A stretch of 13,616 nucleotides of DNA from UHGV virus genome UHGV-0269933. One strand, written 5' to 3'. Both the position numbers and the translations under genes were made by a program. Shown one piece after another: positions 116 through 13,616 of the stretch. Source of the stretch: a virus. How positions within the stretch are numbered: position 1 is the stretch's first letter; every line of letters starts with the position of its first letter. Under the pieces are notes generated by a model that was not told the DNA's origin, searched no databases, and saw only the letters and a program-made list of their open reading frames with translations.

Positions 116-145
116 TTGAACGAAATCACCAACTAATCGTAATAT
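116..145 (+). promoter_or_regulatory. Sigma70-like promoter for the Abi-like gene (TTGAAC-N18-TAATAT)
   Basis: -35 TTGAAC at 116..121 and -10 TAATAT at 140..145. SD AAGGGG at 164..169 upstream of ATG 180. Confidence 0.4.
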
Positions 146-170
146 GATAAACCTCTACATATGAAGGGGT

Positions 171-944
171 ATGGTGTACATGAAGTCTATTCTTGATGAA
201 CTTAGTACTGATATTGAGCGCGCTGAAAGTCTACAGTCCCAGCTGATTAGCGTAGCTACTGGCGGACCTGCGTTACCATATGAATATCAGGAGCTAAGAC
301 GTTTTTTTGTTGAATCACCACTATATAGCAACATTATTCCCTCTTTCGTAAAAACAAACCGCAACACCGACCAATTTTGGCAATTTATTAAATACAAATT
401 TGGTACATATGCTGAAAGAAGGCAGTACATTTGGGATGAATTCCAAGAATTGATGGACTATCTGGAGGGTAAAAACAAAGCACCCGCAGATGAGGACATC
501 TCTGATGTATTAAGACGGTTTGATGAGGATGGTGTTCACACCGTGTGGATGAAAGCACTAGAACGGCGCCACACAGACCCGGATGGGGCGATAACCTCTG
601 CAAGAACACTTCTAGAAACGGTTTGCAAGCACATTCTTGATGATATGGATGTCCCCTATAATAATAAAAATATAGAAATGTCAGAGCTTTATAAAATACT
701 ATCAAAAGAACTTAACTTATCTGCCGACCAGCATACTGAAAGTATTTTCAAACAAATTCTTGGTGGTTGTTCAGCCGTTGTAAATGGGCTAGGTACTCTT
801 CGTAATAAACTTGGTGACGCACATGGAAAGAATCGCTCATCAGTTAAACCATCACCAAGGCATGCAGAACTCGCTGTAAATTTATCAGGCTCAATGGCTC
901 TTTTTCTAATTAGCTCATGGTTAAACCTTAAAGATAAAAATTAA
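171..944 (+). CDS. Abortive-infection family protein (Abi_C-like C-terminal domain); likely true start ATG at 180
   Basis: 257-aa ORF. C-terminal LGTLRNKLGDAHGK motif after a TLLETVCKHIL helix resembles the Abi_C family signature (from memory). AT-rich relative to flanks, own promoter and SD. Confidence 0.55.
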   Translation: MVYMKSILDELSTDIERAESLQSQLISVATGGPALPYEYQELRRFFVESPLYSNIIPSFVKTNRNTDQFWQFIKYKFGTYAERRQYIWDEFQELMDYLEGKNKAPADEDISDVLRRFDEDGVHTVWMKALERRHTDPDGAITSARTLLETVCKHILDDMDVPYNNKNIEMSELYKILSKELNLSADQHTESIFKQILGGCSAVVNGLGTLRNKLGDAHGKNRSSVKPSPRHAELAVNLSGSMALFLISSWLNLKDKN

Positions 945-969: not shown

Positions 970-1227
970 TTAGTTAATCATTATGTTCATCGGTTTAAGC
1001 TGTTTCTGGCTGTTCACCAGCCAATCTTGCATGTATTTGCACCAGGTACTGAACATCGCCTCATCAGTGCCTGGATAGGTGTACAGATACCCCATAAGGA
1101 CTTTATCGGTAATCTCATCCTCTTGATCCCAACCAATGATGAATTGACGAAATAGGCCGTATGATTTAGCCGGATCCGTATTCCTCCACGTTTCCACTAC
1201 TACATCGAATGCCGGAACCCTGAATGT
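970..1227 (-). pseudogene. 3' remnant of an unknown gene truncated by the IS66-family element
   Basis: Track ORF 970..1293; its N-terminal 22 aa are translation of the IS terminal repeat. Only the C-terminal ~85 aa (RVPAFDVVVETWRNTDPAKSYGLFRQF...) lie outside the IS. No start codon or SD. Confidence 0.35.
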
Positions 1228-2001
1228 GTAAGCGTGCAGTGAGAACCGTATTGACGAAGTGAAGCTGGTCAGGCAGGCAGAGTAACCCGCCACGGGAGCA
1301 GAGCACCCACCCGGTTCACAGGCCAGTCGGCGATGACATCAAGTACATAATGCAGATAGCGTTCCGGATCCACGCCGTTTAATTTGCACGTCCCGATAAG
1401 ACTGTACAGTGACGCACCGCGCTCACCACCATGATCCGAGCCGAAGAACAGCCAGTTTTTTCTCCCCAGACTGACCCGTCGTAGGGCGTTTTCGGCAATG
1501 TTATTATCCACCTCCACCCAGCCATCTTCTGCATAGCGGATCAGCGCCGGCCACTGGTTCAGCGCATACCCGAACGCCTTCGCCAGTTCTGAGTGCCTTG
1601 AGAGGGTTTTCTGTTTCTCCCGCAGCCACCCCTCCAGTGACGCCAGCAGCGGCAGCACTTTTTGGTGCCGGACTGCCTGCCGTTCCTCTGCTCTTTTACC
1701 TCTGATCTCCGACTCGATGGCATACAGCTCGCCGATCCGTTTCAGCGCCTCTTGCGAATGTCTGTCCTCTGGCTTTACTGGTGTTCATGTATTTTTCAAA
1801 GCCGGGGAGTGTAACTGACAGCGCTCGAAATACCTCTCGCGGTGTGCTAATCACTCGCTGGTGCTCCCGGCCAAATAATCTGATCAGAGGACCACTCAGT
1901 TTGATAGTTGTCATGACTTCTGCACATGGATTCATAGCCGCCTCAGTTAATTTTGGAGAAAGGAAACGGTTAGGCTTTTTTTAGCTCAAAATAGCGCTTA
2001 C
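1228..2001 (-). mobile_element. Internally deleted IS66-family insertion sequence remnant (~0.77 kb)
   Basis: GTAAGCG-type terminal sequences at both ends (1228 on +, 2001 on -). Contains the C-terminal ~170 aa of an IS66 TnpC-like transposase. No matching 8-bp target-site duplication (ctgaatgt vs catttcct). Confidence 0.7.
1269..1783 (-). pseudogene. IS66-family transposase (TnpC) C-terminal fragment
   Basis: Translation ...ALKRIGELYAIESEIRG...LAKAFGYALNQWPALIRYAEDGWVEVDNNIAENALRRVSLGRKNWLFFGSDHGGERGASLYSLIGTCKLNGVDPERYL...LLPW matches the conserved TnpC C-terminus. In-frame stop lies upstream at ~1786; N-terminal two-thirds absent. Confidence 0.8.
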
Positions 2002-4659: not shown

Positions 4660-5361
4660 TTACTCTACCCCTTCATTCTCAGTAGTGATTGCACATGATG
4701 GCATCCAGTCGCCAGAATCATCATGCAGGGTTACGTTAGAGCGTATGCCATGTTTGGTTTTCCGCTTCTGGTATTCCTTCCCATACTCAACCATTGCGCC
4801 AGGCATATCTGTACCGAACCGCATCAGTGAGACAGGCTTACTCAGGCCATTGGCTCTCATGTATGCCAGATAGGCGTGATACAGGTACTTGCGCGGGCTG
4901 AATGGCACTATCTCGGCATTACCGATAAACATCCCGTCACACACTACCGACGCCATCAGGTAGCCGCAGAAGTCCACCAGCGAATCACCTTCACGCTTGA
5001 TCGCCAGAGCCTCCTCTGATTTCTGCTGCTCATACAATAACCGTCTGGCTTCGTCCTGGTCTGCAAAACGTGTAAGCAGATGGCGGATAACTACAGCCAG
5101 TTCCCCTTCTATTTTCTCTGCCAGCATCGAGTCTCGCTCGTTTTCTGGTACAACCTCCGAGAAATTGAAAATAACCCGGCGCCGCGAAATCCCCCCGCTA
5201 CGGTCGCTGAATGTCATAGCATTGTTGTTTACCGCCAGCACCACCGCCGGAATACGGGTTGAATATGGTGCTTTATGTTTAGGATCGATAGACACCTTGT
5301 CACCACCAGTTATGGCCTTAATACCTGCACCATCGCCAGCGTACCGGGTCATATCAGGCAT
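4660..5361 (-). CDS. P4 alpha-type primase/helicase C-terminal (iteron-binding) domain homolog, stand-alone/truncated
   Basis: 233 aa beginning near the SF3-helicase arginine-finger region (AVVLAVNNNAMTFSDRSGGISRRRVIFNF). No Walker A/B or primase domain. Located immediately upstream of the TGTTCACC iterons, as the alpha 3' end is in P4. Confidence 0.55.
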   Translation of the reverse strand: MPDMTRYAGDGAGIKAITGGDKVSIDPKHKAPYSTRIPAVVLAVNNNAMTFSDRSGGISRRRVIFNFSEVVPENERDSMLAEKIEGELAVVIRHLLTRFADQDEARRLLYEQQKSEEALAIKREGDSLVDFCGYLMASVVCDGMFIGNAEIVPFSPRKYLYHAYLAYMRANGLSKPVSLMRFGTDMPGAMVEYGKEYQKRKTKHGIRSNVTLHDDSGDWMPSCAITTENEGVE

Positions 5362-5427
5362 AATGATCGTAATGTTCCTTTATTTCATGAATCGTAATAG
5401 GCATAAATTCTCCTTGTTTGTCTAACC

Positions 5428-5620
5428 TGCCGCATTTAGTGCCGCGTTTAGCAATGCCGCACTTAGCGCCGCACCAGTTTTCTCAAAAAATTACGCAAAC
5501 CCAGTAATGACGTGGGTTTCAGTGAAATGCCGCACTTAGCGCGTGTATACAGGGACTAAGTGCGGCATTTGGTCATAAAACATACTAAATGCCGCACATG
5601 CCGCACTTACCGCCGCATTT
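5428..5620. repeat. Cluster of >=5 copies of ATGCCGCACTTAGCGC-like repeats including a 15-bp perfect inverted repeat
   Basis: Copies at ~5428, 5455, 5527, 5554 (inverted), 5588-5620. AAATGCCGCACTTAG-N16-CTAAGTGCGGCATTT at 5526..5571. Hairpin aaaccca/tgggttt at 5497..5519. Confidence 0.6.
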
Positions 5621-6983
5621 ACTCGACTGTTACCGGGTAAAGGTTCTCACCCTCGATGCGAATAATTTGCTCACTCTCCAGCTTGTCCAGCCAGCGCGGG
5701 AATGACTTTCTCACTTTGTCTGAGCCCAGCGTTGCACGCAGATCGTCTTTAATGACGGAGATAGTGCATGGCTCCCCCTTAGCTGTTCGGCTGCGAACTG
5801 CCTGCCATAGTGCATGATGGTTATCGCTAAGACGGGATACATGGGCCAGTTCAGGCTCAACCTCTTTAGCCTCTCTCGGCTGATCGTGCACAACCAGAGA
5901 GCAAACAAGCTCGCCATCTTCATCGGTGTAAAGCTCTGCCGTTCTCAGGTCATACGCTTTACGCTCTGGCTCCTCCGCGTCTTTCATCTTGGTACAGGTC
6001 AGAATAAGCGCTTTTCCATCCCCTTCACGCTTAACGTTAAATTCAGTATCAAGCGCAGCGCGGAAAGCACTGGAACCGCGAGCGCCTTTCCCTTCATCTT
6101 TGCCGGAGTGGTGAACTACCAGCACCGTTGCACCCGTTTTCTGTTTGATAACGTCACACCCTTCAATAAATGCCCCCATATCACGAGCATCGTTCTCGTC
6201 GTTACCGCCAAAACAACGGGCCAGCGTATCGATCACCACCATGCGAACCGGCACACCACATTCGGCTTCAATCTGCCTGGCAGCCAGAAGAACTTCTGTA
6301 ACCTCTGACTCACGCACCGGGAACACCGGACGATTGACCAGCCAGAGGTTGTCTGCCTGTATGCCATGCACCTGTTCCCATGCCCGTATACGCCGGGGAA
6401 CACCTACACCACCCTCGCCAACCACATACAGCACCGCGCCGGGAGTGACCTTCTTCCCCGCCCATGGCAGACCAGCAGCGATATGACAGGCCCACGACAC
6501 GGCAAGAAAACTCTTATACGAACCGCTGGGGCCGTAAATGCTGCACAGTGATTGCGCTGGCAGAAAGTGTTTAAGGATATAGTCCTGACGGATATCAAAG
6601 CCCTCAGAACCGCGAGAGAGAGGCAGCTTTGTCCTGAACTTTGCACCAGCATCAGGGAATACGCGGTGAATGCGCTGCACGTCAGACAGCATGGCATTCA
6701 TTTCCCCTTCGCCTATCTCTTCCACCAGCACAGAACGCCGCGCGGTAATCATATGTTTGCGGTCGGTATCGAGATACCCGGCATCACAAAGCTCCTCATA
6801 CGGCATTGCTGCTATCTGGTTGAGGCGAGCCACCAGCTTTCCGTAACGGGTAGTGGGGTCCTTATGCTGGTGGAGAGCTTTATCCAAATCGCTGCGACTG
6901 TACTGCTTGCCATGCGCCCACAGATACGAACAGGTGAACAAGGCATCCGATACGGTTTCTACAGCTGTCAGTTGTACCGTCAT
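5619..6983 (-). CDS. RepA-like replicative helicase / AAA_25 (RecA-fold) ATPase with N- and C-terminal accessory domains
   Basis: 454 aa; Walker A GPSGSYKS, Walker B-like VVIDTLARCF, HHSGKDEGKGARGSSA motif typical of RSF1010 RepA/DnaB-like helicases. ATGA overlap with upstream gene. Confidence 0.75.
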   Translation of the reverse strand: MTVQLTAVETVSDALFTCSYLWAHGKQYSRSDLDKALHQHKDPTTRYGKLVARLNQIAAMPYEELCDAGYLDTDRKHMITARRSVLVEEIGEGEMNAMLSDVQRIHRVFPDAGAKFRTKLPLSRGSEGFDIRQDYILKHFLPAQSLCSIYGPSGSYKSFLAVSWACHIAAGLPWAGKKVTPGAVLYVVGEGGVGVPRRIRAWEQVHGIQADNLWLVNRPVFPVRESEVTEVLLAARQIEAECGVPVRMVVIDTLARCFGGNDENDARDMGAFIEGCDVIKQKTGATVLVVHHSGKDEGKGARGSSAFRAALDTEFNVKREGDGKALILTCTKMKDAEEPERKAYDLRTAELYTDEDGELVCSLVVHDQPREAKEVEPELAHVSRLSDNHHALWQAVRSRTAKGEPCTISVIKDDLRATLGSDKVRKSFPRWLDKLESEQIIRIEGENLYPVTVE

Positions 6984-8959: not shown

Positions 8960-9802
8960 TCAAGATAATTCTTTCCTGATTTTATCTAAAGAATCACTTC
9001 TTATGATTTTATCCAAGAAAGGTTTTACCGTTTGAGCTATGGCAAAGGACTCCTTTTCTCCATCCGGGAACAGGGATACTGCGAGTACGCCAAGAGATAT
9101 TTTGCTGTCGGTAGCGCTTTCCCATGACATCAAATCAATAAGTGGAATTATTCTGTAGTCAATTATTTTCCGTCTGACGCTCTCCCAGTCCCCTGAGACT
9201 GGCTTATCTGGTTCAGGTATTCCGAGTTCTTCGCGCCATTTTGGGAGGAGGTTCGTGAATGCTTCAATCAAAAGATCATCTCTGTTGTTTAAGTCAACAG
9301 TAATCATCACGTTTTCCACAACATCAGAAAGTAAGTTTACTGGCTCGCGCATGATAGCCCAAAACATACCGTTATCTGCTGTAAACAAATCCCCCACCAA
9401 ATCATCGTCAACTACTATTGGCTTTCCTTTCCAGTGACCTTTATCAGCATTGATTTTATTTAAAAATGCCAACTCAAATCTCATTAATGGTTTTATACCA
9501 TCGCCGTAACTTAATTTTAGCAAATCAGGCTGAGTCTTGTACTCGTATTCCTTTTGCTTTTCAAGAAACCATTCTTCTGCTTTGAGTTCCCCGAATGGAT
9601 CACCAAAATTATTGTTAAGCGGGTATTTAGCACCATATTGCAAACCATAGTCAGGGCAGTCTGTATTTTTTATTGCTAAATCATCGCATCGCCAATAGAG
9701 CTGACGAAACAAATCCTTATCAGACATATTTTCAAGGTCATCATATTTTTCCAAGCTGAATGACTTTGGTAAGTCTCTTTTACTGTTAATTTTTTTTGTC
9801 AT
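8960..9802 (-). CDS. Hypothetical protein (280 aa), AT-rich cargo gene translationally coupled to integrase; function unknown
   Basis: ATG overlaps the integrase stop codon (ATGA). Markedly lower GC than neighbours; acidic, Lys/Asp/Glu-rich; no motif recognised. Confidence 0.6.
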   Translation of the reverse strand: MTKKINSKRDLPKSFSLEKYDDLENMSDKDLFRQLYWRCDDLAIKNTDCPDYGLQYGAKYPLNNNFGDPFGELKAEEWFLEKQKEYEYKTQPDLLKLSYGDGIKPLMRFELAFLNKINADKGHWKGKPIVVDDDLVGDLFTADNGMFWAIMREPVNLLSDVVENVMITVDLNNRDDLLIEAFTNLLPKWREELGIPEPDKPVSGDWESVRRKIIDYRIIPLIDLMSWESATDSKISLGVLAVSLFPDGEKESFAIAQTVKPFLDKIIRSDSLDKIRKELS

Positions 9803-11022
9803 CTTGCGACCTCAAGAATAGTAACATTTGAGATATCAGAGGTAATAACCTCTAATCTCTGCATCCATTTATTCAGTGCATCCAGCTTTTCAGGTAAATA
9901 CTGACTGCGGTTATATACGGACATGACACCGCCCAGCGCATGGCCCAGAAGCTGCTCGACAACATGCGGAGCAATTCCCATGTTGTTCAGAGTCGTGGAA
10001 AACGTACGGCGTAGATCGTGAAGCGTCCACGGTTCAGAGTGGCCCAGACGCTTATACAACATCCTTCCCCACTGACTGACAGCTTCCGGTTTCTTTATCT
10101 CTCCAAGCAAAAGCCCTGTGCTTTGGTGCTGCTCTAAGAGCTGTTTGATAAATGGGCGGATATCTACGGGAATAGGACGTAGTATTTTCTCACCACCTTT
10201 GCTGTGCTCTTTAGGTACAGTCCAAACCCAATCACTTAGATCCCATTCGGTTACGCGAGACAATCTCAACTCCTGAGTTCGGCACCCAAACACTACTAGC
10301 AGACGTAGCAGCGAGGAGTAGTAGGGCTTGAATTTCAAGCCTGAACACTCCCGCCATATATCAGCCAGTTCTTGCCGGGTATGTTCCCTGTCCCGTTTAT
10401 TCTGTTTACGTCCAACATCATCAATGGTCAGATCGTCCAGGACATTACTCACCGCGTACCGATGAACACGGCAGAACTTGAGGGCTTGCTTACACATTTG
10501 CAGAAGATAGCCAGCAGCTACAGGAGCCTCATCTCTCACCCTGCTGAAACACTCCAGCCAGTGGCGGGTTTCGCACATAGAGAGGGGAAACGCCCCAATA
10601 TATGGGTAGATATGCTTATTGAGCTGTTCTATATGCTTTTCTACATTAGCCCGTTTATGAGATGCATATTCCCTTATCCAGTATTCAAGTGCCTCTTTTA
10701 CAGTTACCGGCTTAAGTGTTTCCTGTGTGGTGACAGTTAACTGGTGTTTCGGGTTCTTCCCCTCAGCAAGCCAGGCACGACATTGATCTCGCTTTGCCCT
10801 CGCGGCCTTAAGTGAAAGATCGGGATAGTTACCTAACTTCAAACGCTGAGGGGCAGTACTGCGTCCACCAATACGGTATGTAAAATACCAGGTCATTATG
10901 CCTATCTTTGACACCTTTACGCTCAGGCCATCACCATCAGCGTAAAAGCTATCACCGGGGCTTTCCCTCCCAACCATCTTGCGGAGCGATGTATCGCTTA
11001 ACTTGTTCGTTCCACCAGCCAT
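9799..11022 (-). CDS. int: Site-specific tyrosine recombinase, P4-type integrase (Arm-binding N-domain + catalytic domain)
   Basis: 407 aa. N-terminal ...DGDGLSVKVSKIGIMTWYFTYRIGG...LKLGNYPDLSLKAARAKRD arm-binding pattern. C-terminal HDLRRTFST...LGHALGGVMSVYNRSQY catalytic motifs, similar to P4 Int. GAGG SD. Confidence 0.9.
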   Translation of the reverse strand: MAGGTNKLSDTSLRKMVGRESPGDSFYADGDGLSVKVSKIGIMTWYFTYRIGGRSTAPQRLKLGNYPDLSLKAARAKRDQCRAWLAEGKNPKHQLTVTTQETLKPVTVKEALEYWIREYASHKRANVEKHIEQLNKHIYPYIGAFPLSMCETRHWLECFSRVRDEAPVAAGYLLQMCKQALKFCRVHRYAVSNVLDDLTIDDVGRKQNKRDREHTRQELADIWRECSGLKFKPYYSSLLRLLVVFGCRTQELRLSRVTEWDLSDWVWTVPKEHSKGGEKILRPIPVDIRPFIKQLLEQHQSTGLLLGEIKKPEAVSQWGRMLYKRLGHSEPWTLHDLRRTFSTTLNNMGIAPHVVEQLLGHALGGVMSVYNRSQYLPEKLDALNKWMQRLEVITSDISNVTILEVAR

Positions 11023-11044: not shown

Positions 11045-11068
11045 CACTGACTACACCACTGACTACAC
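11045..11068 (+). repeat. Tandem arm-type repeats CACTGACTACAC x2 (P arm)
   Basis: Perfect tandem 12-mer between the integrase start and the att core; homologous to the repeats at 69..90. Confidence 0.55.
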
Positions 11069-11195
11069 ATCTCAATGTTACTCTATGAACAGCAATGAAC
11101 AAAGGCAAACCAGAAAAACGATATTATCGTTATATATCATAATAATACACGAACAACAGCAAACATAACCGAACGGTAAAAAACGTAGGTTTTGA

Positions 11196-11213
11196 AAATA
11201 CGGCATGAACTAA
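11196..11213 (+). other. fis: Last six codons of fis (K-Y-G-M-N-stop) at the island/chromosome junction
   Basis: aaa tac ggc atg aac taa encodes the conserved Fis C-terminus. Stop lies 85 bp upstream of the yhdJ ATG. Sequence upstream is integrase leader, not fis. Confidence 0.5.
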
Positions 11214-11238
11214 TTCAGGTTAGCTAAATGCTTGATTA

Positions 11239-11276
11239 AAAAGGCGCTACTCGGCATGGGGAAGCGCCTTTTTTAT
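11239..11276 (+). terminator. attR-type direct repeat, the fis Rho-independent terminator
   Basis: Identical to 26..63. GC-rich hairpin followed by a T6 run, upstream of yhdJ. Confidence 0.8.
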
Positions 11277-11298
11277 AGGTGTCACAAAGGGAGTGACC

Positions 11299-12183
11299 AT
11301 GAGAACAGGATGTGAACCGACCCGGTTTGGTAATGAAGCTAAGACCATTATTCACGGTGATGCCCTTGCCGAACTTAAAAAGCTACCTACTGAAAGCGTC
11401 GATCTGATCTTTGCCGACCCACCGTATAACATCGGTAAAAATTTTGATGGTCTGATCGAAGCCTGGAAAGAAGATCTGTTTATCGACTGGCTGTTTGAAG
11501 TGATTGCAGAGTGCCACCGCGTTCTGAAAAAGCAGGGCAGCATGTACATTATGAACAGTACGGAAAACATGCCCTTTATCGATCTCCAGTGCCGCAAGCT
11601 TTTTACCATCAAAAGTCGCATCGTCTGGTCATATGACAGTTCTGGAGTACAGGCGAAAAAACACTACGGCTCCATGTACGAACCCATCCTGATGATGGTG
11701 AAAGACGCAAAGAACTACACATTCAACGGTGATGCTATTCTGGTAGAAGCCAAAACCGGATCGCAGCGCGCGTTGATCGATTATCGCAAAAATCCTCCAC
11801 AGCCATACAATCATCAAAAAGTACCGGGTAACGTCTGGAATTTTCCGCGCGTGCGTTATTTAATGGATGAATATGAGAACCACCCGACGCAAAAACCGGA
11901 AGCCTTACTGAAACGCATTATTCTCGCCTCTTCCAACCCAGGCGATATCGTTCTCGACCCGTTTGCCGGTAGCTTTACTACCGGTGCCGTAGCCATCGCC
12001 AGCGGACGAAAATTCATTGGTATTGAGATCAACAGCGAGTACATCAAAATGGGGCTTCGACGGCTGGATGTCGCGTCGCATTACTCCGCGGAAGAACTGG
12101 CGAAAGTGAAAAAAAGAAAGACGGGCAACCGGTCAAAACGATGCCGGGTTAGCGAAGTTGACCCCGATCTCATTGCAAAGTAA
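11299..12183 (+). CDS. yhdJ: DNA adenine (N6) methyltransferase YhdJ
   Basis: 294 aa from MRTGCEPTRFGNEAK...; DPPY motif (FADPPYNIG); C-terminal SAM-binding motif DPFAGSFTTG. SD AAAGGGAG. Track start at GTG 11293 is less likely. Confidence 0.9.
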   Translation: MRTGCEPTRFGNEAKTIIHGDALAELKKLPTESVDLIFADPPYNIGKNFDGLIEAWKEDLFIDWLFEVIAECHRVLKKQGSMYIMNSTENMPFIDLQCRKLFTIKSRIVWSYDSSGVQAKKHYGSMYEPILMMVKDAKNYTFNGDAILVEAKTGSQRALIDYRKNPPQPYNHQKVPGNVWNFPRVRYLMDEYENHPTQKPEALLKRIILASSNPGDIVLDPFAGSFTTGAVAIASGRKFIGIEINSEYIKMGLRRLDVASHYSAEELAKVKKRKTGNRSKRCRVSEVDPDLIAK

Positions 12184-12266
12184 AGGAAGTGTAAGCCTGG
12201 TTTTCAGATTATTCATTTCGTGTATATTTCCTGCCAGACTTGGTTAAACATGCACAGGCTCAGGTA

Positions 12267-12446
12267 ATGATTCGCAAGTATTGGTGGCTCGTCGTTTTCG
12301 CTGTCTTCGTTTTTCTGTTTGATACTTTACTGATGCAGTGGATTGAACTGCTGGCAACAGAAACAGACAAATGCCGTAATATGAACTCAGTTAATCCACT
12401 AAAACTGGTTAACTGTGACGAACTGAATTTTCAGGACAGAATGTGA
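12267..12446 (+). CDS. yhdU: Small membrane protein YhdU
   Basis: 59 aa from MIRKYWWLVVFAVFVFLF... with one hydrophobic helix; conserved position between yhdJ and envR. Confidence 0.75.
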   Translation: MIRKYWWLVVFAVFVFLFDTLLMQWIELLATETDKCRNMNSVNPLKLVNCDELNFQDRM

Positions 12447-12448
12447 AT

Positions 12449-13111
12449 TTACATGACACTTAATTCATTCGTTTGATGAATTAATTTCGTTATGTTTTCA
12501 TCTGGCATGAACATTCTTAATACGTTATCGACCAGCGCGGGTGCTTGTTTATAAAGATCATAACCCGCCATATTCATTAACCAGTTTTGAACAATTCCGC
12601 TGAAGGCACCATCAATAATAATCATCACAACATCTAAATCGAGGTTATTTGCTACACAACCTTGTTGCTGACACGCCTGCAATACTTCGCGGAGAGTCTG
12701 CGGATTAAAGCCCATCTTTTCGCGTATCACTCCCTCGGCCAGCATCTCATCATTAAATTCACATTTGTGATATAAGATTTTCAGCAACGCCTGCTGGCGG
12801 GGAATTTTGGCAATATATTGCAAGCCGACAATCAATTTTTCACGCAATTGTTGAAACGGGTCATGCTCTAATCCAGCCGTCAAGTGTTCCTGGATTAACT
12901 CCCGCAATGAAGGCTGTTGCAACCACATCTCATTAAACAGTTGAGTCTTGTTTTCGAAGTGCCAGTAGATAGCGCCACGCGTAACGTTAGCAGCGTCGGC
13001 AATGTCGTTGAGCGTCGTCTTGCTTACGCCATGCTGCGCAAACTGGGCGATGGCAGTTTCAATCAGTTCTTGCCGGGTCTTCAGAGCTTCGGCTTTGGTT
13101 CTTTTTGCCAT
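12449..13111 (-). CDS. envR: TetR-family repressor EnvR (AcrS) of acrEF
   Basis: 220 aa, N-terminal TetR HTH (TRQELIETAIAQFAQHGVSKTTLNDIADAANVTRGAIYWHF). Divergent from acrE. Confidence 0.9.
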   Translation of the reverse strand: MAKRTKAEALKTRQELIETAIAQFAQHGVSKTTLNDIADAANVTRGAIYWHFENKTQLFNEMWLQQPSLRELIQEHLTAGLEHDPFQQLREKLIVGLQYIAKIPRQQALLKILYHKCEFNDEMLAEGVIREKMGFNPQTLREVLQACQQQGCVANNLDLDVVMIIIDGAFSGIVQNWLMNMAGYDLYKQAPALVDNVLRMFMPDENITKLIHQTNELSVM

Positions 13112-13509
13112 GATTAATTATTCAGGAAATAAATATATTCGACACAGGGTGAGAAAATAGCGAAGGTTAATCTATCATCTAATGTGTATTTATACGAGAG
13201 GGTAACATTAAGTTGCTATAAATCGTCAAATAAATAATATATATTATTTACCTAAAATACATTCGCCACATGAATATATATTTCAATTTACGAGGTTTTA
13301 ATTCTACCTCTTTCAACCCGCGTCAAAATAAAACAGTAGAATATTAATCTTTTTTTGTGTTTATGTGCCTTGAGACGCCAGTATTCATAACTATTCCTTA
13401 CATCGACGAATGATAATTTGTAGGATAGCAAACTGTATTTTTCTTTCTGCGAGTTAACGCGTTGCCTTTCTGGGTAAATAACGCGCTTTTGGTTTTTTGA
13501 GGAATAGTA

Positions 13510-13616
13510 ATGACGAAACATGCCAGGTTTTTCCTCCTGCCCTCCTTTATTCTGATCTCCGCGGCTTTAATCGCCGGTTGTAACGATAAGGGAGAAGAGA
13601 AAGCTCACGTCGGTGA
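13510..13616 (+). CDS. acrE: Multidrug efflux periplasmic adaptor lipoprotein AcrE, 5' partial (runs off window)
   Basis: MTKHARFFLLPSFILISAALIAGCNDKGEEKAHVG: lipoprotein signal peptide with lipobox LIAGC. SD GAGGA. Confidence 0.85.
   Translation, partial: MTKHARFFLLPSFILISAALIAGCNDKGEEKAHVG

Follow-up and report, generated by a model that had tools for sequence, protein, structure and literature searches.

The gene at positions 171–944 on the plus strand of the DNA analysed here, a 13,616-nucleotide stretch of virus genome UHGV-0269933 (hereafter the window), probably encodes a self-contained defence of the AbiJ/Abi_C kind, in which one protein acts against phages and possibly against plasmids; a phage satellite integrated at fis in Escherichia coli carries the gene as accessory cargo. 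Defence by Abi_C/HEPN proteins is of a known kind, and the gene is most likely such a single-gene system and not the remnant of a two-gene one. This reading builds on the domain identity, fold, motif conservation and modularity of the protein, the purifying selection on its gene and the cargo position that it occupies, from which we infer the RNase activity, activation logic, trigger and phenotype of the window protein.

Domain architecture and characterized relatives

The reading frame is unbroken in the ORF listing of the window, and its translation, 257 amino acids from the ATG at 171, contains TLLETVCKHIL and LGTLRNKLGDAHGK, the region in which an earlier note, made from the letters of the DNA, had recognized an Abi_C-type signature. 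A profile search bears the recognition out: Pfam Abi_C (PF14355) matches residues 172–247 over profile positions 2–82 of 83, with 77.6 bits against a gathering cut-off of 24 bits (E = 7.8e-22), and the match sits on a HEPN fold, a helical bundle with an active site, in this half of the protein. The only annotation attached to the full-length match, phrog_23253 (2.7e-125), is ‘unknown function’.

Homologue N termini align to the ATG at 180 (MKSILDEL) and not to the ATG at 171. The Shine–Dalgarno sequence proposed in the earlier note is present as AAGGGG at 164–169 (+), and G163, A164, G166 and G167 are invariant across five islands, but it lies 1 nt before the ATG at 171 and 10 nt before the ATG at 180, a spacing that suits the latter. 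Given this distance and the point at which homologues begin, the true start is probably 180 and the protein probably 254 residues long.

Two modules, joined by a disordered linker (residues 102–108), make up the protein: an N-terminal helical domain (about residues 4–100; positions 180–470, +) and a HEPN (Abi_C) effector domain (about residues 104–250; positions 480–920, +). The effector domain includes, at 801–824 (+), the codons for R211-N212-K-L-G-D-A-H218, which correspond to the Rx4-6H motif of HEPN RNases. Across 40 homologues R211 and N212 never vary and H218 reaches at least 90% conservation. Of the 79 family ORFs that were called in the loci under comparison, 75 have R-N-x5-H; the four exceptions are truncated or frameshifted copies. 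The gene is under purifying selection, with a dN/dS of 0.045 against its homologue in locus L082; synonymous sites are saturated against most relatives, and the ratio is usable only against L082 and the E. coli island L001.

Among the closest known systems is SadR, an Abi_C-domain RNase of 266 amino acids from Staphylococcus aureus (Kondo et al., Nat Commun 2026; PMC13590631). As a single gene, SadR lowers phage plating 10- to 10,000-fold and also reduces plasmid transformation; the protein degrades single-stranded RNA, runs at approximately dimer size on native gels, and loses both RNase activity and defence when its R, N or H is mutated (PMC13590631). The window protein (254–257 amino acids) shares with it the single-gene organization, the C-terminal Abi_C/HEPN domain with RNKLGDAH in the place of RNEYGDAH some 35–40 residues from the C terminus, a location adjoining an integration hotspot for mobile elements, and a CD-search class in which no N-terminal domain is recognized. 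The two belong to different phyla, and their locations differ, being rlmH and SCCmec for SadR and fis and a satellite for the window gene.

AbiJ is a known lactococcal Abi system, and the mutants that escape it map to a single-strand annealing protein of the phage (PMC13064643). AbiJ itself (Abi-859, from the Lactococcus lactis plasmid pND859) is likewise a single-gene HEPN Abi protein, but the PADLOC AbiJ model matches only the C-terminal part of the window protein (residues 118–247, E = 1e-20), over profile positions 146–274 of 281 and thus short of full length, from which it follows that the N-terminal halves are unrelated. Likeness to HepS, a HEPN nuclease of the Gifsy-1 prophage and sensor of the lambda J tail tip (PDB 9oik), is at the level of the fold only; HepS does not have the N domain of the window protein, and the sensing of tail proteins is a feature of HepS of which the window protein gives no sign. 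A profile search of solved structures returned no relative of the family by sequence.

The N domain, a helical bundle of about 100 residues with a conserved QFWQFIK motif, has the properties of a portable, sensor-like module. Pfam gives no match to residues 1–118 even at E values up to 10, while AbiJ_NTD3 is readily detected by Pfam in a Burkholderia relative, a plasmid protein in which a HEPN module 54% identical to that of the window protein follows AbiJ_NTD3. Conversely, the N domain is found fused to TIR, CAP12-type TIR, protein kinase and CHAT domains, and also behind a DnaG Zn-ribbon. Exchange at the linker is recorded as a recombination breakpoint, with 98% identity to protein P0004 on its N side and 92% to P0024 on its C side. 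Going by the published account, the domain probably corresponds to AbiJ-NTD5 (Anantharaman et al. 2013; PMC3710099), a mostly α-helical domain of about 100–115 residues with E. coli w0043 as its exemplar: size, all-α structure and fusions to AbiJ HEPN, TIR and the DnaG Zn-ribbon would agree with this account, from which the kinase and CHAT fusions are missing. Matches of residues 42–117 to Csm2 (PADLOC E = 0.0065; NCBIfam 0.024) were rejected as chance, since both are below threshold and involve a short helical region.

Family spread and restriction–modification neighbours

Clustered at 90% identity, the homologues have more than 5,000 representatives; they occur at 44–72% identity in many phyla, most of them outside satellites. 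Cultured phage genomes yielded only four partial matches, so this is not a typical phage gene. Across phyla the N domain retains about 50% identity. This is more conservation than would be expected of a binder of a fast-evolving phage protein, and it hints at a conserved cue or host partner instead.

We compared 82 loci: the window, L001 and 80 loci from genomes. In this set, type I restriction–modification (RM) genes alone recur beside the family, and no other gene is a conserved neighbour. In 21 of the 80 genome loci an hsd gene is found no more than 5 kb from the homologue, which in most of them sits inside the operon just after hsdS; the genes there usually run hsdM-hsdS-Abi-(other genes)-hsdR on a single strand. 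In 13 loci the Abi gene starts somewhere from 7 nt upstream to 117 nt downstream of the hsdS stop, and in five the two genes overlap; Pfam confirmed the hsd labels. The same operon position also holds RhuM, an OLD-type ATPase or a Schlafen/AlbA_2 protein and, with such unrelated defence genes taking turns in it, looks like a general cargo slot.

This arrangement speaks for an unlikely alternative, in which the protein is a guard of restriction like PrrC, silenced by a type I RM complex, freed when a phage anti-restriction protein disables that complex, and then cutting tRNA or other RNA as a back-up defence. PrrC and RloC are HEPN RNases encoded in type I RM operons, their nuclease domains being HEPN, and AbiJ-family HEPN ‘solos’ in R-M operons have been described as well (PMC3710099); the strong cross-phylum conservation of the N domain would moreover agree with a conserved partner, for example HsdS or HsdM. 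Yet in about three-quarters of the homologous loci hsd genes are missing from the surrounding 5 kb, neither the window nor the enterobacterial satellite loci contain one, and the operon position is shared with the unrelated genes just named. The window protein also differs from PrrC and RloC in having no ABC-ATPase domain (Pfam finds no ATPase domain of any kind in it). Since hsd genes accompany a quarter of the loci, mostly with the homologue embedded in the operon, part of the family may nevertheless depend on a partner system that is absent here.

The satellite, its cargo slot and the genes downstream

The Abi gene stands at one end of an island of about 11 kb, a PICI/cf-PICI-like satellite in E. 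coli integrated at the 3′ end of fis. A 55-nt direct repeat brackets the island, its left copy (attL, 9–63) holding the fis terminator hairpin and its right copy (attR, 11222–11276; 91% identical) being followed by yhdJ. The last codons of fis open the window, the native fis 3′ end (...tacggcatgaactaa) precedes the right copy, and the flank at 11200–13616 is 99.7% identical to E. coli fis-yhdJ-yhdU-acrS; in homologous loci, too, fis is immediately upstream. The gene begins about 107 nt inward of attL, opposite the tyrosine integrase gene (9799–11022, −), so its placement across att from int in the earlier note is correct. Homologous islands encode Arm-DNA-bind_3 and Phage_integrase domains at the integrase position, which E. 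coli records annotate as a tyrosine recombinase. With its att repeats and integrase, AlpA-like and excisionase-like regulators, a replication module (a RepA-type helicase, phrog_2850, and a D5-primase fragment), capsid genes (Capsid E and decoration protein D) and a variable int-distal gene, the island has the features of a PICI/cf-PICI-like element. We identified neither a terminase nor a portal gene among the ORFs of the window, and its tail-related genes are disrupted, which marks the element as decayed; it has probably lost the ability to transfer.

The Abi gene is AT-rich cargo, as the earlier note had said, with 39.5% GC (GC3 32%) against 47.9% in the remaining island. The exact allele is not among 5,426 complete E. 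coli genomes, in which the best match (86% DNA identity) covers bases 451–984 only. The earlier note had suggested comparing neighbourhoods with homologous islands free of the insertion sequence; such islands exist in Klebsiella, Enterobacter and E. coli, and in them the gene holds the identical att-proximal slot near fis. It is missing from one E. coli relative of the island, with 92.7% identity in the int region, and is thus accessory and dispensable for the satellite life cycle. PICIs are reported to have immune systems as cargo at the 5′ or the 3′ end (Fillol-Salom et al. 2022, as cited in PMC11364771). In being variable, AT-rich, int-distal and beside att, the window gene resembles this cargo and the defence hotspots of P4-like satellites (PMC9122126); the difference is that the island here is decayed and probably non-transferable. 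We found no report in the literature of the Abi gene family having been tested as satellite cargo. A PADLOC scan of six other island proteins, including the product of a low-GC DUF6387 gene, gave no match.

The region between attL and the gene contains repeated motifs (69–121, +), with TGACTGCAC occurring twice (69–89) and then GAAC three times at a spacing of about 10 bp (97–121). Similar motifs lie just upstream of int (11048–11068 and 11145–11164), and those at 69–121 are conserved whether or not an island has the Abi gene; they are candidate integrase arm or excisionase sites, with a possible role in recombination. They also complicate the promoter put forward in the earlier note. TTGAAC-N18-TAATAT is present at 116–145 (+), with its −35 element at 116–121 and its −10 element at 140–145, but as a σ70 promoter it is a weak match, agreeing with the consensus at 8 of 12 positions and falling below the threshold of a scan that did not call it. 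That scan found two promoter-like sites in 1–1400, compared with a mean of 3.3 in shuffled sequence. TTGAAC or TTAAAC is conserved in five islands together with G-AA of the −10 region, and the −35-like TTGAAC overlaps the third GAAC motif; conservation of GAAC across islands may reflect recombination or regulator sites and not a promoter.

Occupation of the equivalent end of several satellite types that differ in their capsid modules could also be expected of a gene that mainly serves its carrier, either as an island-stabilizing addiction toxin or as a degrader of helper-phage transcripts that favours satellite packaging. The gene is intact and under purifying selection even though its island has decayed, and HEPN RNases are common as toxins. 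We nonetheless regard such a role as quite improbable, since the majority of homologues lie outside satellites, one closely related island does without the gene, and no antitoxin candidate is found nearby: there are no tandem repeats in 1–1300, where a tandem-repeat antitoxin was sought, no Rfam family anywhere in the window and no plausible small partner ORF near the gene, and neither an MNT antitoxin nor a type III tandem-repeat RNA like those of AbiV or ToxIN was found beside it.

It is very improbable that the protein is instead a non-catalytic HEPN regulator, a ligand or RNA binder in the manner of the mannitol repressor MtlR, and has no toxic or defensive role, as the whole family retains the R, N and H of the motif, the N domain is exchanged between the known defence effectors TIR, kinase and CHAT, and the contexts are RM operons and mobile elements.

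The earlier note had further held that a convergent downstream gene was truncated by an IS66 element and that an original two-gene system might now be a single gene. The truncation is real. Bases 1228–1700 (−) are an IS66-family remnant, consisting of a terminal inverted repeat and the tnpC 3′ end only, and are 100% identical to IS66-family tnpC 3′ ends in E. coli; Pfam agrees, with DDE_Tnp_IS66 (positions 207–283 of 284) and IS66_C in the ORF at 1269–1658. To one side of it lie the C-terminal 85 codons of a 116-aa, tail-assembly-chaperone-like satellite gene (970–1227, −) that lost its 5′ end to the remnant, and to the other an N-terminal fragment of a Lambda_tail_I-like tail-assembly gene (1696–1935, −), the 3′ part of which the remnant has replaced. 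The first product is 41% identical to residues 37–115 of a Klebsiella 116-aa protein, itself a borderline match to Phage_TAC_4 (21.2 bits against a cut-off of 21.1), and the second is 57% identical to residues 4–59 of a 197-aa Klebsiella protein; the full-length Lambda_tail_I-like homologue of E. soli matches phrog_32, tail assembly protein (1e-76).

The origin proposed for the pair does not survive comparison of the loci. The Abi gene and its convergent neighbour are close, 25 nt apart here and 5 nt apart in Klebsiella islands, but where the 116-aa gene is intact it has a 4-nt overlap with the Lambda_tail_I-like gene. In L082, L089 and L002 one or two further genes lie between it and the Abi gene, and L001, whose Abi gene is 73% identical, lacks the 116-aa gene. 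Among the 82 loci it clusters only in the window and L002, that is, with one of the 81 others, and is no recurrent neighbour. The 116-aa gene is one of the satellite's morphogenesis genes and not a partner of the Abi gene, a role ruled out by the comparison of loci and by the Phage_TAC_4/Lambda_tail_I context. The comparison has thus largely refuted the view of the Abi gene as the survivor of a two-gene system, possibly inactive or unregulated since IS66 destroyed its partner, and with SadR functioning as a single gene we find that view scarcely credible. Tail-assembly inhibition (Tai) was also rejected as an identity for the gpI-like and TAC-like pair, as the Tai paper places tai genes beside pri and describes neither gene.

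Proposed mechanism and significance

On the preferred reading, that of a self-contained defence, the C-terminal module (about residues 104–250) would be a HEPN ribonuclease with R211, N212 and H218 as its active-site residues, probably dimeric like other HEPN RNases. The N-terminal module (about residues 4–100) would keep the RNase silent and respond to a cue of infection, upon which the activated enzyme would cut cellular and phage RNA. Cleavage would bring translation and phage growth to a stop, by abortive infection or growth arrest, and in protecting its host the gene would protect the satellite too. Because the island is decayed, the gene could also be a passenger without a current role.

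The N domain invites a bolder and unlikely proposal, that it is a widespread, unnamed or poorly catalogued sensor of one conserved cue for interchangeable HEPN, TIR, kinase and CHAT effectors, and that the HEPN subfamily is a portable RM guard captured by satellites. The cue might be the activity of single-strand annealing proteins of phages, to which the escape mutants of AbiJ and SadR point, or a disabled type I RM complex.

Its modularity makes this domain the most useful lead. The same module of about 100 residues precedes HEPN, TIR, kinase and CHAT domains, and finding one trigger would therefore explain several systems; if the sensor reading is true, one small domain would define a new sensing principle common to several defence families. 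Placement after hsdS provides a concrete, testable tie to PrrC-style guarding of restriction systems. For annotation, the fis-proximal end of such satellites is to be treated as a variable cargo slot, and neighbouring tail-related genes are not to be taken for defence partners. We found no report in the literature of any member of this subfamily, with its thousands of cluster representatives, having been tested. If active, the gene would add another compact single-gene RNase defence to those known, one that phage satellites have spread among the Enterobacteriaceae.

Family membership and domain architecture

The reading frame at 171..944 (+) is open and encodes 257 residues, with the segments quoted in an earlier note present in its translation. 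That note had read the gene as being of Abi_C type, correctly: residues 172-247 match PF14355 (Abi_C; Pfam) at 77.6 bits (E = 7.8e-22), where Pfam's gathering score is 24. Of the 281 positions in the PADLOC AbiJ profile, only 146-274 align, to residues 118-247 (E = 1e-20), and the likeness to AbiJ is therefore confined to the C-terminal part of that profile, with no full-length match. No NCBIfam model scored above its cut-off. The protein belongs over its full length to the PHROGs family phrog_23253 (E = 2.7e-125; annotated as of unknown function), and it carries the profile match, fold and motif of Abi_C/AbiJ-family HEPN proteins.

The AT-richness that the note had pointed out is real (39.5% GC versus 47.9% in the remainder of the island), and its promoter and Shine-Dalgarno proposals hold in part. 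TTGAAC-N18-TAATAT is present at 116-145, but it is weak, matching 8 of 12 consensus positions, and was not called in a promoter scan in which promoter-like sites around the gene were no commoner than in shuffled sequence. AAGGGG at 164-169 belongs to a purine-rich block kept in five islands, but it ends 1 base before the ATG at 171, and the homologues' starts align with the ATG at 180, which is probably the true start and would give a protein of 254 residues.

An AF2 model built on a 40-sequence alignment (mean pLDDT 77) comprises two helical domains; the linker between them, 102-108, is modelled with low confidence. The N domain, which reaches pLDDT 86 when modelled by itself, has no Pfam match and resembles only generic helical bundles. 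A search of 1.84 billion proteins with its profile returned 1,271 representatives, and in the longer hits the domain stands in front of TIR_2 (three proteins), a CAP12/Pycsar-type TIR, a protein kinase domain (P0215) or a CHAT protease domain (P0251); one homologue has a DnaG-type Zn-ribbon ahead of it. The kinase and CHAT fusions are not among the architectures given in the account of AbiJ N-terminal domains consulted here (PMC3710099). In turn, the HEPN half (residues 104-250) recurs at 54% identity behind AbiJ_NTD3, as the C-terminal half of a protein from a Burkholderia plasmid. Compared by description only, the architecture fits the AbiJ-NTD5 class (Anantharaman et al., PMC3710099).

Alignments with close relatives indicate that the two halves recombine, with the linker as breakpoint. 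Relative to locus L082, DNA identity is 90-95% over the first ~330 nt and 67-78% thereafter; relative to the E. coli WP8-S17-ESBL-12 locus (L001), there is no match before base 451 and 86% identity beyond it. The N and C parts are, respectively, 98% and 86% identical to protein P0004, and 40% and 92% identical to P0024. The dN/dS of 0.045 against L082 places the gene under purifying selection.

An apparently mosaic satellite and its cargo slot

Right of the island, 11200-13616 aligns with E. coli fis-yhdJ-yhdU-acrS at 99.7% identity, and a 55-nt direct repeat (9-63 and 11222-11276, 91% identical), its right copy preceded by the native fis 3' end, encloses ~11 kb. These att repeats, together with a tyrosine integrase (9799..11022, -), AlpA-like regulators, a RepA-type helicase gene, a fragment of a D5-type primase gene, and lambda-E-type capsid and D-type decoration genes, identify the island as a PICI/cf-PICI-like phage satellite; neither a terminase nor a portal gene was identified among its ORFs.

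The Abi gene begins ~107 nt inside attL, at the island end opposite int, where the earlier note had placed it. In intact relatives the same slot directly after fis contains an Abi gene whose protein is 86% identical in four Klebsiella loci, 90% in an NCBI assembly and in a Logan contig, and 72% in both Enterobacter soli and E. coli SCU-125; a 73%-identical gene lies at the end of a different satellite, inside a lambdoid prophage, in ~40 E. coli genomes. In a related E. coli island with a 92.7%-identical int region, the slot's ~780 bp contain neither an annotated gene nor any remnant of the Abi gene, which is therefore accessory cargo of the satellite. Immune systems have been reported at the 5' or 3' ends of PICIs (PMC11364771).

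Several further features of these islands deserve mention. The complete RepA-type helicase (5619..6983, -) is 94-95% identical to those of other E. coli fis islands. Adjoining it, the D5-type primase fragment (4660..5361, -) retains only the C-terminal third, matching PHROG primase profiles from about position 420 on, and its DNA is 85% identical to a Klebsiella island (L085). The capsid module resembles that of another island, L001 (75%), and the whole has the look of two or more satellites recombined or fused. Directly downstream of the helicase gene, five copies of an ~18-20-nt iteron (5425-5617; consensus near ATGCCGCACTTAGCGC) are probably the replication origin. Between an AlpA-like regulator and int, a DUF6387-family gene (8960-9802, -) is also low in GC (38.6%), lacks a PADLOC match and has phrog_23422 (annotated as of unknown function) as its sole PHROG match; a different gene takes its place in E. 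coli SCU-125 (L089, 14340-15152), and the int end may be a second variable cargo slot.

Matching short repeats occupy both sides of the att core (69-121 and 11048-11164), as TGACTGCAC/TGACTACAC doublets plus ATACACGAAC followed by GAAC motifs phased at ~10 bp. They are kept whether or not an island has the Abi gene, contain the proposed -35 hexamer, and may serve as arm-type sites for the integrase or as binding sites for excisionase. A 29-nt sequence, CGCTCAAACTTCAATCGGCCGAGTTTTCG, perfectly repeated in direct orientation (2162-2190 and 2240-2268, copies 78 nt apart) in non-coding DNA between a gpI-like fragment and an excisionase-like regulator gene, could be a packaging or regulatory site. 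In L001 (6783-16000), the satellite with the 73%-identical Abi gene has a TIR-domain gene at its other end and directly adjoins a major capsid gene whose annotation marks the N terminus as missing, apparently through integration into that prophage gene or recombination with it.

The IS66 remnant and the downstream gene

As the earlier note had observed, an IS66-family element lies downstream: 1228-1700 is 100% identical to the 3' ends of tnpC genes, and Pfam matches only the last part of the transposase. The note suggested that the convergent gene truncated by it may once have been the partner in a two-gene system, which comparison across 82 loci does not support. At 41% identity, ORF 970..1227 corresponds to residues 37-115 of a 116-residue protein, encoded in intact Klebsiella islands, that has a borderline Phage_TAC_4 (tail assembly chaperone) match (21.2 bits; cut-off 21.1). 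The gene for that protein shares 4 nt with a Lambda_tail_I-like gene (PHROG 'tail assembly protein', 1e-76), whose N-terminal fragment is ORF 1696..1935 (57% identity to residues 4-59). Both tail-related satellite genes are thus broken, with the remnant in place of their junction. The 116-residue gene has no fixed link to the Abi gene: three islands have other genes between the two, L001 has no copy of the former, and across the 82 loci that gene clusters only with the window and L002.

Relatives, hsdS neighbours and candidate mechanism

The family exceeds 5,000 cluster representatives at 90% identity; among the best 120, most are ~250 residues long, with at least 57% identity over at least 94% of the query. 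The genome loci, 44-72% identical, span all classes of Pseudomonadota and extend to Campylobacter, Bacteroidota, Chloroflexota, Planctomycetota, Nitrospinota, Leptospira and one Paceibacterota MAG.

The reading best supported by our analysis is a single-protein defence, in which the N-terminal module would keep the HEPN RNase in check until infection activates it to cut RNA and arrest the cell. Its experimental anchor is SadR of S. aureus, a 266-residue Abi_C protein with the motif RNEYGDAH, whose single gene suffices to reduce both the plating of phages and transformation by plasmids. SadR degrades ssRNA and migrates at about the size of a dimer, and mutation of R, N or H abolishes RNase activity as well as defence (PMC13590631). 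An escape mutation maps to a single-strand annealing protein for SadR in phage 80-alpha (PMC13590631), as do escape mutations for AbiJ (PMC13064643), making that protein a candidate trigger, although only as a lead because the N domains appear to differ.

The main rival holds that the window protein is a PrrC-like guard of restriction-modification. We clustered ORFs within 5 kb of the gene in 82 loci (80 genome loci, L001 and the window) and found no conserved neighbour besides hsd genes. Pfam-confirmed hsdM, hsdS or hsdR occur in 21 of the 80 genome loci, usually with hsdM-hsdS-Abi-(other genes)-hsdR all on the same strand. Relative to the hsdS stop, the Abi start falls between 7 nt before and 117 nt after it in 13 loci, and the two genes overlap in 5. 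This adjacency favours a guard, as does an N domain conserved to an unusual degree, but hsd genes are missing here and from three quarters of the loci, as are, in this window, the defining features of PrrC. The hsdS-hsdR interval also houses, in varying combinations, RhuM, an OLD-type AAA_15/TOPRIM ATPase, a Schlafen/AlbA_2-HTH protein and a HAD-like hydrolase (L046, L048, L056, L080 and other type I RM loci), and is a multi-gene embedded defence slot.

Unlike toxin-antitoxin systems, the window gene has no partner genes around it (no tandem-repeat antitoxin, Rfam family or small partner ORF was found); a satellite-centred role in addiction or helper interference is less likely, as is a non-catalytic regulator. 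On the sequence comparisons, the window protein is a member of the Abi_C/AbiJ HEPN family with a putative role in phage defence, carried in a known kind of cargo slot, and what most merits following is its portable N domain, together with the connection to hsdS.
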